The position numbers and the translations under genes are program-made. Shown one piece after another: positions 23,925 to 64,000 of a stretch of 64,000 nt of DNA. The stretch is from the NCBI RefSeq assembly GCF_963921235.1, contig NC_086097.1, positions 43,650,001-43,714,000 on the forward strand, read 5' to 3'. The notes under the pieces are model-generated. The model searched no databases, was not told the origin of the DNA, and worked only from the letters and a program-made list of their open reading frames with translations. Position 1 is the first letter of the stretch, and every line of letters begins with the position of its first letter. The DNA comes from Mobula hypostoma (taxonomy: Eukaryota).

Positions 23925-24350
23925 CTGAAAAGAAAAAGAAAAAAAATCAATTAATTGAACAACTTGACTTTGACTAGTTGAAACAAAAAGAGCTGCTTAT
24001 TACTAGATTGCCTGTGGAATTTCTCAAAATCAAGTAATAATTAGGCTGTTCCAATGAAAATGGAGAAAAAGTTGGACACAAAATGCAAGTCCCATCAGTA
24101 CTGAAATTCAAGCACAGCTACAAAACCAGTTCAGCTGTTTATATTTTCACCTACTACTGTTGTTTGGGGCAAAGATAATGCTCACCATTCCAGACAATTC
24201 TAATTGTTTTACAAATGAACAGAAAAGGCACAGAACTCAGTAAGGATAAAGGGCTGTGCAGGTAGTTACTTCATACATCAACAAAATAAAACAACTACTT
24301 GGTCCAGCATGCTCTTTTAAGTGAGATGGCTCAAGAAGCTATCATGAACT

Positions 24351-24481
24351 GAAACAAGAGAAAATCTGCAGATGTTGGAAATCTGAGCAACACACACAGA
24401 ATGCTGGAGGAACTCAGCAGGTCAGACAGCATCTATGGAAAAAAGTAAGTAATGTTTCAGGCCGAAACCCTTCAGCAGGAG
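24351..24481 (-). mobile_element. 131-bp Penelope-tail insertion beginning at a decayed hammerhead
   Basis: 9-bp TSD tcatgaact (24342-24350 and 24482-24490). Minus strand reads CTGCTGA A GGGT TTCG GCCT GAAACATT, then the PLE tail. Confidence 0.8.
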
Positions 24482-25207
24482 TCATGAACTTAAGATTTTT
24501 GAACTTGTTTCTAATAAAAATCAGACAGCATGAATAAAAGTACTCATGCATTTAATTCTTCTGCCAGATTTATATGACAAACATAATTTGCACTAAGAAT
24601 ATATTTTAGTAGAGAAGGGAAGATAGGAGCTAGGAGTTTGAAAGGACTGTAAAATAATTTCACTACCTCAGTGTAGTAAAATATAAATTGATAAAATTTA
24701 CACTATTTACCCATGATGCCACTTTCTAGAAATTATAAACCTGTTTTCCCAGGTCTCTTTATTCCACCGCACAGCGTTACCATTCACTGTATATGTGATA
24801 CCCTGGTTTGTCCATTTAAAGTGCAACACCTTACACTTGCCTGTGTTAAATTTCACCTGCCATTTTTCAATCTATTTTCCCAGCTAGTAAAGATCATGCT
24901 GCAAACTTTGATGGCCTTGGGTGTCATGTGCAAATATGCTCAATTTTTAGTTCCCCTTTCCCGGAGTAAAGACTGTTGTTAGCTTCAGATTATATTTCTC
25001 CTTTTAATATCACAACAAAATTATAAGTCTGGTTTCTAGACTGATAACAATGGGAAAGCACTTGTGCTTGAAACATCTAACTGCTCCCCCCCCAAAAAAA
25101 AATCTAGAGTGAGATCTTTCCTGTAGGATATGAATGTTCAGAAAGCTACAAAATCACTTATTTTTCTGGTGACGTTGCTCAAGTAGAGAATATTAGATTA
25201 TTTAATA

Positions 25208-25742
25208 GTTGAGTGGTGCCACAACAACAACCTTTTACTCAATGTCAGCAAGACCAAGCAGCTGGTTACTGACTTCAGGAGGAGGAATCCACAAGCCCAT
25301 GAGCCAGTTCTCACTGGGAGATCAGAGGCAGAGAGGGTTAGCAACTTTAAGTTCCTCGGTGTCATCATTTCAAAAGGACTTGTACCGGCTCAGCATATAA
25401 GCGCAATTACGAAGAAAGTACCGCAACGCCTCTACTTCTTTAGGAGTCTGTTAAGATTCAGCATGACATCTAAAATTTTGACAAACTTTTGTAGTTCTGT
25501 GGTGGAGAGTATATTGACTGGCTGCATCACAACCTAGTATGGAAACACAAAAGCTCTTTAATGGAAAATGCTACAAGTAGTAGTGAATACGGTCTAGTCC
25601 ATCACAGGTAAAGCTCTCCCACCAAGTACTGTCACAGGTAAGCAGCATCCATTATCGGGGACCTCCACCACCCAGGTCATGCTCTCTTCTCACTGCTGCC
25701 ATCAATAAGGTGATATAGAAGTGTTAGGACTCACACCACTGG
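25208..25742 (+). mobile_element. Rex1/Babar-like LINE RT C-terminal fragment
   Basis: WCHNNNLLLNVSKTK..TDFRR and KKVPQRLYFFRSLLRF..VVESILTGCIT motifs, frameshifted. Confidence 0.75.
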
Positions 25743-59839: not shown

Positions 59840-62800
59840 CCCTACAGTGTAAAGGGGCACTATGTTTTAGGAAGACTTTTCTGGAAAAGTCTCACGATAG
59901 AGGCTCCAGTTGTTTGGCTTGATTGCACACTGCCACAGTCACCTCACCTATCTCATCTGTAATAAGCAGTCTCACTTCAAATGTCTCGGTTGACTACAAA
60001 TGCCTTACCATGACTTCCTCAGTATGGATTTGCTGGTTACTATGAGCATCTGCCTGGGAACTCTGTTCAAAACACTTTTCTGACTTTGCCAAGTTCCTGC
60101 TGTCCCAGCTCTGGCAGAATCTGTGGATCCTTTAAAAGCCTCAGAAACGAGGCAATAGCATATGATCCTCAATTCTTCAGGACTGTTCAAGATGATAAAA
60201 ATGGAAACCAACCTACTTGAGAAACAATCGCAAAGAAACCCTTTCCTTCTCTTACAAGTACCAGGCAGAAATTTTGTCGAAGTTCAGGAGCAAATTTACT
60301 TTCAATTTATTATTCCCAGTTAGGACTTGTAAAGGAATCTTGCTGCTATCAATAAAAATATAACAGGAAATCCCTATAAGACAAAAATTGCAGTCTTCTA
60401 TAAATTAACCCAACAGATTAAAATAAGGAAACAATTTAATCTGTAACATAATGTGATGGTCAAACATGAGTAGTCAATTCCTCCTTCAAGACTCAAGTCT
60501 TTTAACACAAAATTGGCAAGTTTTGAACAAATTCTGCCTATCAGAGTTCATTTGTACATTTGTCCAAGTTTGTACTATATACTTGGATGACAAAAATCAA
60601 CTTATTAATTTGACATTGCATGCCTTCTGATATTACCCAAAATTTCTCTCTACCTCAAGTTTTAAATATACTACTTAAATAAATCTTCTAAACTTGAGGA
60701 AATAAAGACAAAAAATATGATTTTAATTTGTATTAATTTAGTGAAGCAGCACTCTACCCCAAAGGAGAATGTATTTTTCCTGAATGGTACGCAATATAAA
60801 GCTGTTCTCAAAGGCTTTACAAAGCAGAAGGATCTTTTTTTCTCATGTTGGTATTCAAACATCTAGAGATATAGTCAAAGATTCTATTTAATGTTGTTTC
60901 TAATGGTTATCCAAGTCATGTTTATCTACATTTGTTGGGTTTCCCAACTAAAATATTTGGATTTTAAATAGTAGTGAATGACCCTGTATCCTCACATTAA
61001 ATTCCTTTGCTCACAGAACTTTCATTTACAACATATTCCACCTCTTGCTTACAATTCACTACTACTTCAGTAACTTCATTTGACTGCTGATAATTTGAGG
61101 CCACAAGGCAGATCCCCAGGAGCACCACATGGATTTCTTCATGATGCTGCAGTTACCCCTCACATCAAAGGCAACCTAGCTGATAAAATGGATATAGTGT
61201 AAATAATTGGCGGGAAATAAGCAGTGCGGAATGGGATTGTGCTGAAATCCAATACAGACACCAAGGAGTAAATAGATACCTCTCCTAAGTCATAAAGATG
61301 TACAAGATAAGACGCTTTTAAAGGAGAGGAGCATAATACATAATGTATTATTCTTCTGTCCTTATGAAGCTTCGTCCATTACAAAAGGAGACAGACTAGT
61401 TGCAAAAAAAAACAGCCTTAGGTCAGCCTAAATTGTGAAATGAAAAGCCTCGCTACATAGTTAATATGCATATATGAGAAATTAAAAGGTTAACTACACA
61501 TACAAAATATACCCCTGTAAATCTCCTGTGTACTTTATGTATCATACAGTGAAGGGATTGTAAATACTAAGCAACCATATAATTTCAATGTTTTCTGTCA
61601 TTCTAAGGAAAATTATTCTGATTTCTGTCATGGCAACAAGAATGCTGACGCAAATTGCAATTCAAGTAATTTAAAAATTCATTTATTGCTCTATTCAATG
61701 ATATGCTGTAGAAATATTAATGGACAAAATTTGCAAGTGCAATATTTTAAAAAGCCTGTCATATATTGATTCAGTTGGTATTATAGAACTCAAGCTTGCT
61801 TTTCCAAAAATGCTGCTGATAACATGCGGTCCCAATGTTCACAAAAAAATAATTGCATAGGAATTATGAAATAATCCCTAAATAAAACCGGAAAATAATT
61901 GGGAAGCCATGAGCTACATAGATTATCCTAGTTTCATTCAAAATTGAACGTTCATGGGAAACTCAAGAAAATTGTCAGAAATAATTTGAAGGCAATACCT
62001 CTGGGTGTGAATATTTCGAAAAATACTTTTCTCACTTGAGAAAACATTCATAGCAAGACCTTGGGCCCCTTTTTCAAACTTGCGTCAAAGACACTTGTTT
62101 CTTCAAAATGGTTCTAGCATAATTTGGAATAAATTTAATGTAGACAATGAGCTTTGACAAAAAGGAATCTTCAATGTTTCTTCAAGTTTCTTTTGAACAG
62201 AGGTTTCTTTCCTAATCCAATTTTTAAAAAATCAACCCTAGGAAATAAGGCAAAGTAAATACATGCTGTTTTATCACTACAAAACCATTACGAGGCATCT
62301 ATTGGCACACGACCATTCTGTATTAATCATTTTGGTAGCAAAACACAGGGAATATTATCCAGTTTCTCAGGATAGCATGTGCTAGGAATTATCAATTTGT
62401 GCAAGTATGAACACTTTTTCCTCAATCACAAGTCACTGAATACTTTCCCAATTAGTTTACAGTTTTGGAATTCTCCTGAATGCAATCTTACATCTCACTT
62501 ACAACAGAGCTTTGAACCAAAAATTAAAGTTGCTTTACTTTGGGGAAAAAAAGCAAATTAGAACACTAAATTATTAACATTATCATTGTCAGTCAGTTGT
62601 AACAAGCCCTTTGCAAAGTTTAAAATACATCCAATTTTCTGCCAGTATAGTGGAGAACACAAGGAAACTGTGAGAGTGTACTAATTGCAAAAAGATGTGC
62701 AGAAATAACAAACATTTAAAAAATGATAAATTTAATAGTTAATAGAACTGGAAACAAATGACTGAGTACAGAATTAGAATAACCTAAATTATGATAACTA

Positions 62801-63301
62801 ATGCAATTATTTGTTTAAAAATTACCATTTAGAAACTGCAAAGCAATACAAACACCATCTACAAAGAAAAAAAAAATCAAATTTCATGAAAAGCAAACTC
62901 GAAAGGCCAGGTTTTGTCAGACTGCCTCATTTGGACCGTAGCATGTAACAGAAATAACTGTTTCTGCTTTCATCTTTTATGTGGAGAATAGACCAGGAAG
63001 ATCAGTTTGCTTAATTGGATTGTGGCTTTATAAATCTTTTTCCAAAATGGTTCATGGAAAAGATCCATTTCGGTTTTTTGGGCAGGAAATCCATAAGTTT
63101 TCTCAGTTTTATATTTTACATTGTGCATTGTATTTCAACATCCTTGCTTGAAGATACAAAACTTACACGGCACCATTTTAACTATAAAACTGGTACCATC
63201 AATATTGATGATCTGTTTTAAAAATATTTACATGTTTACTTATGTAATGGCAAGGTTGGAACCTTGGACATAAACTAGGAAGGGAAAATTAACTTAGCAC
63301 C

Positions 63302-63389
63302 CGACTCAAAATGCCGGAAGAACTCAGCTTGTCAGGCAGCACCCATGTGTTGCTCTGGATTTCCTGCAACTGCAGAATCGCGTGCTTAC
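63302..63389 (+). mobile_element. 88-bp Penelope-tail insertion with internal inversion
   Basis: TSD aattaactt(a/t)gcacc (63287-63301 and 63390-63404, 14/15); tail halves in opposite orientations. Confidence 0.72.
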
Positions 63390-64000
63390 AATTAACTTTG
63401 CACCTTTTGTTGTGGAGGTGATGGCATATAAATTAAATAATCTCATAGGTAACCACTACCCACGTTCTAACCCCAACAAATAGCTCCAGTATTTAAATTC
63501 AGTTAAGTCTGGTCATCTCAATCTTTTGAAGTCATCTAGCAATCACAACAACAAAACCATAAGTGATCTTGGGACTGGATTTAAACAGGCCAAAGTTATT
63601 TCATCATGGGGTAATGCTACAAAGCTACCTATTCCCTACCAACATCAGTGTAGAAGTACCTTCACCAGAAGGACTACACTAGTTCACTGCCATCTTCAAA
63701 ATAAATAGGTGATGGAAGAACACCAGTGAAGACCTTAGTATGCTTACCAGTGAGAACTTTATTCCAAAAATGAACGAATACTTGATTCCCCCAACATATA
63801 CTGCAGCAATATTGAATTTCTGTCAGAGGTTTATACTTCTAAACCGTGCATCAACACAAAAGTTATGTTTTGGTGGAACATAATTCAAGCAGTGGCTAAG
63901 TTGTTGGTGAGTGTACTTCTGTTGGTGACTCTTTCTATCATAGAGGGAAGAAAATGATTGATTATATTACCTTGGCAACATTGTACATGTCTAGTAAATG

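Follow-up and report, generated by a model that had tools for sequence, protein, structure and literature searches.

Background

Insertions of endonuclease-positive Penelope-like elements (PLEs) are described as 5'-truncated, with an adjacent inverted copy and a one-sided tail of 30-40 bp (PMC8557442, Craig et al. 2021), and for PAc, a Poseidon-type PLE of Anolis, this tail was traced to two internal start sites of the reverse transcriptase (RT) (Frangieh et al. 2024, PMC11167929). Hammerhead ribozyme motifs of such elements are for the most part single, "probably related to truncated PLEs", with opposite-strand pairs lying 100-700 bp apart, and in the D. virilis PLE the 3' end of an intron maps to the 5' end of helix I (PMC4209133). 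For retrozymes an origin by local tandem amplification or by rolling circle was proposed, in a main text which does not invoke splicing (bioRxiv 10.64898/2026.07.22.740005, Li et al. 2026). Here we analyse 64,000 nucleotides of the Mobula hypostoma contig NC_086097.1 (G000:C1:43650001-43714000; genome of 3.48 Gb), called the window throughout, with five short insertions that bear the 3' end of a PLE and a long copy of the parent element. About half of the copies of this PLE end just beyond the 5' edge of its hammerhead.

The copies resemble the PLE units of PMC8557442 and PMC3846280 (Arkhipova et al. 2013) in their heavy 5' truncation, inverted copy, tail, partial tandems, target-site duplications (TSDs) and microhomology at the joint. 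They differ in TSD length, mostly 12-15 bp here against 8-10 bp in the rotifer examples, in having separately templated arms, where PMC3846280 explains inversions by self-priming, and in the pile-up of breakpoints at the hammerhead, which the available passages of the two papers do not describe. Two internal RT starts bounding the tail, extension from both target strands, and uncleaved RNA as the main template, with no indication that ends fall at the hammerhead cut, are shared with PAc (PMC11167929); unlike PAc, the present element has a Neptune-type linker, its open reading frame (ORF) starts about 36 nt after the tail and not in stem II, and it shows a termination step at the 5' edge of the ribozyme which the available part of the PAc paper does not report. 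The hammerheads are, like the motifs of PMC4209133, of the minimal dimer-type type I, mostly single, and found in opposite-strand pairs; that source, as far as available, does not map breakpoints, and its splice acceptor at helix I concerns the fly element only. With non-LTR (long terminal repeat) retrozymes (PMC7229834, Cervera and de la Pena 2020; bioRxiv 10.64898/2026.07.22.740005) the common features are a type I hammerhead, PLE-related sequence and long TSDs, but the five insertions are single or inverted, with no tandem and no fixed monomer. The insertion architecture, the tail, the inversions and lone hammerheads are already described, while the termination step beside the ribozyme apparently is not. 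Our literature search, by title and beginning of abstract, found neither a breakpoint step at the hammerhead 5' edge nor a splice-made retrozyme; the supplements (the PAc end coverage in PMC11167929, and the preprint) may bear on this.

Results

Positions within the element (ref) are counted in bases from the PLE 3' end, with ref 1 at window position 49347 (Table 1). Single-base breakpoints were obtained for 51 copies, the first 51 tail matches on contig C1 of the 100 listed (30 loci of 3 kb, 20 of 10 kb), and for 8 small loci. Arm ends were curated by hand, with the window copies left out and L007 censored. Inverted copies (33 of 51) carry, in addition to the first arm that begins at ref 1, an inverted second arm. 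First arms ended at rates of 1.9 per 1000 nt at risk over ref 34-75, 4.5 over ref 76-122, 20.5 over ref 123-148, 9.0 over ref 149-182 and 1.3 over ref 183-500. When both arms are taken together, 32 of 84 ends fall within ref 123-148 and the ranges of 16 touch ref 132-136; alignment stringency shifts the second-arm ends of L005, L015, L024 and L026, and strict values remove one end from the peak. None of 5000 simulations under a constant model, and none of 5000 under a log-normal one, gave a 26-nt scan statistic as high, the width having been chosen post hoc. Uninverted copies also show the excess (5/18), so the step is not merely a matter of arm annealing. A minor cluster of ends was noticed at ref 160-182.

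The same step appears genome-wide, where the 33-base tail has 26,203 exact matches. Anchored counts gave 36,063 copies reaching ref 56, 30,056 reaching ref 114, 13,482 reaching ref 150 and 13,347 reaching ref 200, which corresponds to losses of 3, 22 and 0.2 per 1000 nt in the successive intervals. In the sample the four probes matched at similar rates (46/49, 35/39, 20/22 and 15/16); the ref 150 probe may undercount, and the loss between ref 114 and ref 200 is 56% either way.

Second arms stop at the same positions in 16 of 33 cases despite starting 37 nt later, and the step is seen again about 3.5 kb into the cDNA, in upstream pseudo-LTRs (pLTRs), of which 489, 304, 298 and 198 reach ref 114, 150, 200 and 440 (control of 4 in the last count; the set includes some sister subfamilies and small arrays). 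With ref 150 passed by 62% of these upstream pLTRs and ref 440 attained by about 40%, the step is passable, and it is tied to a position, being found at one place in second arms and in upstream pLTRs alike, for which reason length-dependent abortion was rejected. Ribozyme cleavage as the source of the ends was rejected as well, with 2 of 84 arm ends at ref 100-104, the cleavage site.

The first-pass annotation of the window had claimed that the 5' ends are non-random and had fixed a smooth truncation curve beforehand as the outcome that would count against it. Non-random ends were upheld in the 51 copies and in the genome-wide counts, neither of which gave a smooth curve, and the breakpoints, plotted against the cut site as it had recommended, peak at the hammerhead 5' edge and avoid the cleavage site. 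Its proposal of RT stalling or switching template at the ribozyme holds insofar as ends pile up beside the ribozyme, but they do so at the 5' edge, past the cleavage site; the inversions are the known inverted arm of PLEs, which lacks the 30-40 bp tail and is primed separately.

Two of six near-full-length copies (L052:326-328 and L054:327) have the identical end base, some 3.3 kb from the 3' terminus. This shared end lies one base from another CAG and within a 6-bp hairpin, and is a possible second stop site.

The motif beside the step has, by sequence reading, the core boxes, stems I and II and palindromic helix III of a minimal type I hammerhead; read against the description in PMC4209133, it is predicted to cut itself between 49449 and 49448 (ref 103/102). 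An Rfam scan of the window returned no hammerhead family, just hairpin look-alikes. Three features overlap at the step: a CAG ending at ref 137, TCAGTT with its A at ref 138 and a predicted hairpin at ref 119-149, whose 5' arm is the part that the CAG motif overlaps. The first two, together with the bases upstream of the CAG, we take to be 3' splice-site-like, initiator-like and branch-point-like, respectively, by their motif consensus. In fold prediction the hairpin masks the catalytic core if the RNA reaches at least ref 148 (P 0.5-0.93) and not if it starts at or below ref 139; stem I is predicted in RNA starting at or below ref 139 (P about 0.6), and not in longer RNA. Among 10 older-subfamily hammerheads (12 rows, 2 of them young), 7 are preceded by a long pyrimidine-rich run, which ends in CAG in 5 of these, and 3 by other sequence; this evidence is weakened because the whole 3' untranslated region (UTR) is pyrimidine-rich. 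Two joints at window 49480, in contigs of uncertain kind (4 runs), have short sides and no GT-AG and were treated as other subfamilies.

Insertion anatomy was determined in the same sample. A TSD was called in 41 of 51 copies and measured 12-15 bp in 34 of the 41, while two 30-bp calls lie within local repeats; 6 of the 10 copies with no call ran off the locus and L050 has a TSD by eye. The inverted 5'-truncated arm and the one-sided 30-40 bp tail, hallmarks of PLEs, are both present, and the second arm starts within the range given in Table 1 in 26 of 29 observed cases. In 16 of 33 inverted copies the second arm is more than 10 nt longer than the first, which rules out fold-back of the first arm for these. 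At the haplotype sites 75/85 the arms disagree in 6 of 24 copies, with 73% discordance expected for random pairs. The second arm, which outruns the first and sometimes differs at these sites, is thus a separate RNA-templated cDNA, mostly from the same source locus, and two templates are sometimes used. Of 22 joints without an insertion, 12 show microhomology of at least 2 nt, where 14.5% was expected (p 1e-5), and 11 further joints carry short insertions. In the near-full-length copies L051 and L053 a short leader separates the tail from the start codon; extra 3' bases in 14 of 41 insertions match this leader, which indicates priming at the pLTR-ORF junction. Two separate loci, L008 and L019, share an inversion joint (ref 922/2747, 1 nt of microhomology), and here a rearranged copy may have been re-mobilised.

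The parent copy that served as reference holds a 792-codon frame whose RVT_1 and GIY-YIG Pfam matches are both weak and under the curated cut-offs. Its single ORF with RT and C-terminal GIY-YIG is that of endonuclease-positive PLEs, and the C-x4-C-x2-C of the translated linker fits CX2-5CxxC, common to Neptune and Nematis. Judged by this linker, the parent element is a Neptune-type PLE. No solved-structure relative of the ORF was found. The pLTR, or partial-tandem, layout with the hammerhead in the pLTR is present as well, as seen from the upstream pLTR of L051, 489 junction copies and a tandem spacing of about 3,515 bp. Full-unit tandems, with junction matches about 3.5 kb apart, lie at G000:C2:157232343 / 157235859, C12:173179197 / 173182712 and C21:74011598 / 74015095. 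About 1,479 candidate copies extend to ref 3000, and because many are identical there, the family is very young.

The five insertions of the window, each with its own TSD, were confirmed as the annotation had them, three of them inverted. As a chance control, TSD scores were computed for 300 pairs of random window positions with a search span of 12; a score of 12 was attained by 1 pair, 9 by 2 pairs and 8 by 6 pairs, so the TSDs of three insertions are strong and those of the 24351 (score 9) and 28966 (score 8) copies moderate. The reported size range of 88-185 bp is right at its lower bound, the upper one being 188, and the tandem duplication of the tail in the 28966 copy (46 bp, 28966-29011) had been missed. 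The two uninverted copies end beside stem I (ref 131-134), at ref 132-134 or so and at ref 139, as reported. They alone have the whole hammerhead, so a make-up of ribozyme and 3' tail only applies to them and not to the other three: the 53987 copy retains ref 99-110 of ref 99-134, and the 39908 and 63302 copies none. The 28966 and 53987 copies are of the young family and the others of older families (77-88% identity where alignable), the 24351 copy being from an older subfamily with 77% identity to the young copy. At the arm joint of the 53987 copy there are 3 nt of microhomology, and its host is an older PLE copy (window 53519-54605, 72-74% identical to the young ORF). The five insertions are 5'-truncated and inverted-plus-tail copies of the Neptune-type PLE, a known insertion architecture.

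A 15-bp duplication that restarts at ref 38 in L004 is like the tail duplication of the 28966 copy, and both read as re-entry at the two priming sites. Two further old hammerhead-bearing PLE copies lie at window 9227-9318 and 9806-10379, the latter with ORF-end sequence and an inverted arm (10116-10171 / 10324-10379), and with no TSD found. Other dispersed repeats and LINE-like (long interspersed nuclear element) open frames, unrelated to the PLE insertions, occupy window 37169-37925 / 58634-59824, 41081-43508 and 17732-18443.

Outside the window, three small tandem arrays were noticed among the first 100 of the 489 junction matches, and two were fetched (L057 and L058). The L057 unit runs from ref 136 through the hammerhead, tail and leader into about 138 nt of the ORF, and its four identical joints lie exactly between GT of the ORF and AG at ref 138-137, with no microhomology. 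Such a joint, as read from the sequence, suggests either a back-spliced circle or splicing within a multimeric transcript. The GT is presumably a donor, although a weak match to the splice-donor consensus. GT occurs at 4% of positions in the donor region and ref 136 is itself an end hot spot; we roughly estimate a 1-2% chance that one of two arrays has a GT-AG joint. L057 is a single locus whose ends lie outside the fetched stretch, and it may also have arisen by expansion at the DNA level after one jump. The joint was found in none of the other fetched loci nor in the window, and spliced RNA as the usual template was rejected on this ground. The minimum free energy fold of two L057 units contained no dimeric hammerhead. 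With at least two consecutive units, each with a complete hammerhead, L057 fits the tandem definition of non-LTR retrozymes as given in the available parts of PMC7229834 and bioRxiv 10.64898/2026.07.22.740005, but its joint is at splice sites and not, as in retrozymes, at the ribozyme cut.

The L058 joint is not of this kind (Table 1), and a further array pair is spaced 435 bp (G000:C1:46047733 / 46048168). Six head-to-tail joins (e.g. G000:C12:180924781, C18:124656928, C22:66877962, C58:8388344, C63:18300152 and C80:7424994) leave the first unit at about ref 165-167, perhaps through microhomology with the leader.

Table 1. Location of the elements, insertions, motifs and arrays (window positions unless a contig is named; TSD, target-site duplication)
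Feature	Position	Strand	Description	TSD
Parent PLE copy, reference	49347..52263	-	Long, 5'-truncated	49336-49346 / 52264-52274
792-codon open frame	49770..52148	-	RT (RVT_1, E 3.9e-05), CX2-5CxxC-type Cys linker, C-terminal GIY-YIG (E 8.1e-04)	
Tail	49347..49383	-	Lies between the priming site of the first arm (ref 1) and that of the second (ref 29-46, mode 38)	
Minimal type I hammerhead motif	49445..49480	-	ref 134-99; stem I, CUGA-GA core, 3-bp stem II, GAAA, palindromic helix III	
cDNA-end pile-up zone	49469..49494	-	ref 123-148, densest 132-136	
3' splice-site-like motif	49483..49499	-	Branch-point-like bases, pyrimidine tract, CAG ending 49483 (ref 137)	
24351 copy	24351..24481	-	Uninverted, 131 bp, ref 1-132, whole hammerhead and tail	9 bp, exact, 24342-24350 / 24482-24490
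28966 copy	28965..29152	-	Uninverted young copy, 188 bp, ref 1-46 then ref 1-139	11 bp, 1 mismatch, 28954-28964 / 29153-29163
39908 copy	39908..39998	.	Old inverted-plus-tail, 91 bp, arms about ref 1-57 and inverted about 82-45	15 bp, exact, 39893-39907 / 39999-40013
53987 copy	53986..54146	.	Young inverted-plus-tail, 161 bp, arms ref 1-91 and inverted 110-38	12-13 bp, 53974-53985 / 54147-54158
63302 copy	63302..63389	.	Old inverted-plus-tail, 88 bp, tail on minus strand, arms about ref 12-44 and 44-87	15 bp, 1 mismatch, 63287-63301 / 63390-63404
L057 array	G000:C2:157816560-157817640		At least 3.5 units of 310 bp, head-to-tail, one hammerhead each	
L058 array	G000:C1:133867300-133868050		285 bp, at least 2.3 units, joint at ref 167, not GT-AG	

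Discussion

Starting from the anatomy, the two priming positions and the position of the step, all of which were observed, our best explanation, with a probability of roughly 0.6, is that the short copies are by-products of a PLE with two priming sites and a site-bound termination step. The endonuclease would make a staggered cut, which gives the TSD of mostly 12-15 bp, and RT would start within the element RNA at the pLTR-ORF junction, ref 1. In two thirds of copies a second cDNA would then be primed from the other target end at about ref 38, an order which we infer, and the two cDNAs would be joined through short microhomology into the inverted-plus-tail shape. Both would pass the hammerhead, presumably uncut, and about half would end close to its 5' edge, within some 25 nt. 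For the step itself, the cause that we rank first, tentatively, is a partial site-bound block to RT, due either to the hairpin at ref 119-149 or to splicing proteins that occupy the pyrimidine tract and 3' splice site while the RNA is unspliced.

Several observations weigh against this explanation. A pure stochastic block predicts equal pass rates, whereas 45% of copies pass in general and 62% in upstream pLTRs (p 3e-14); survivor bias or mixed subfamilies could lie behind this. A block at the hairpin base leaves most ends, in the loop and the 5' arm, unexplained. Survival from ref 150 to ref 200 is 0.99 genome-wide and 16/22 in the sample, which spans the first 4.1 Mb of one contig and in which all 51 copies carry the tail, tail-less ones having been left out. 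The arms agree at the haplotype sites in 18 of 24 copies, so most insertions use one source locus.

Somewhat less probable, as we see it, is run-off as the basis of the step, with genuine RNA 5' ends there. Transcription from the pLTR promoter would then start at the hammerhead 5' edge, at the A of TCAGTT; priming at the first pLTR-ORF junction would yield copies of about 135 nt, and the longer ones would come from multimeric or read-through RNA. The crowding of end ranges at ref 132-136 with a sharp upper edge is what run-off would give, in L051, which has the sole complete upstream pLTR observed to contain the hammerhead, that pLTR begins at ref 134, and the unequal pass rates fit mixed RNA ends. 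Stem I, moreover, is predicted in the RNA that would begin at the step and not in longer RNA. Priming at pLTR-ORF junctions also agrees with it, as does the Penelope start site, which lies in the pLTR (PMC2377424); in D. virilis, however, this start precedes the end of the intron, which abuts helix I, by 46 + 75 = 121 nt and does not coincide with it. Some ends, too, lie at ref 139-148. The proportion of upstream pLTRs that pass ref 150 speaks against one obligatory start for all RNA at the step, and the candidate of a single obligatory transcription start at ref 135-148 was weakened accordingly. Other causes stay open for the share of probability that the block and run-off leave.

The first-pass annotation had offered, as one choice, a retrozyme- or SINE-like (short interspersed nuclear element) unit, that is, a non-autonomous element which makes RNA of its own and is moved in trans by the PLE protein. 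The short copies are indeed numerous, about 16,600 tail-bearing arms ending between ref 114 and ref 150; animal retrozymes have been proposed to derive from PLE pLTRs (bioRxiv 10.64898/2026.07.22.740005), and this genome does have small arrays of hammerheads, L057 and L058. We nevertheless regard it as improbable. Short (n=29) and long (n=16) copies share haplotypes (p 0.48, small counts), with no separate haplotype for the short ones; no pair of inverted short copies among 33 has both breakpoints in common, and second-arm starts vary and overlap the target, as in fresh priming. Ends avoid the cleavage site, and two of the five insertions lack the ribozyme. A short head-to-tail join pattern has 81 matches genome-wide, many of them unrelated or by chance. 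Head-to-tail units, each with a complete hammerhead, were seen in 0 of the 5 window insertions and 0 of the 51 sampled copies; the tandem arrays for which the annotation had advised a search do occur elsewhere in the genome, as rare true hammerhead arrays, and not among the five insertions. The five insertions show no fixed monomer bounded by ribozyme cuts, their ends being variable, and the short copies have neither the defined 5' end nor the own lineage of a SINE. At the five sites Rfam gave no hit derived from tRNA, 7SL or 5S, with no dedicated tRNA scan made, and the copies map onto the PLE. In our reading, an autonomous Neptune-type PLE leaves the mini-insertions behind as dead-end by-products, and they form no family that copies itself.

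Smooth 5' truncation, with a peak that would come from ascertainment, or from subfamilies with divergent 3' UTRs upstream of the hammerhead, is very improbable: older subfamilies do lose similarity at about ref 134 and the sample had been inspected before the peak window was set, but sampled short arms are bordered by a TSD or an inverted arm and not by foreign UTR (L039 has no TSD call), the probes match at like rates, the scan test allows for window position and the step recurs 3.5 kb into the cDNA.

A more specific scenario, which we consider speculative and rather unlikely, joins the step and L057. The 3' splice site beside the hammerhead would be used in vivo; factors bound there would stop RT on unspliced RNA and thereby turn half of the new insertions into stubs headed by the hammerhead, and back-splicing from a donor at the ORF start would make a 310-nt hammerhead circle, to be copied by rolling circle into a newborn retrozyme (L057).

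Conclusions

In PLEs, the role of the hammerhead and the origin of the odd insertion shapes are open questions, and the tens of thousands of young copies in this genome record where RT started and stopped. The five insertions themselves are ordinary debris. Taken together, the copies indicate that the template, we infer, was uncut at the ribozyme, that the arms were primed separately and that half of the cDNAs ended at the 5' edge of the ribozyme. The step offers one exact, testable site and explains the lone hammerheads that litter such genomes. The splice-exact array suggests an origin of animal retrozymes that can be tested, and the splice-site reading, if true, would be a concrete route from a PLE to a non-LTR retrozyme.

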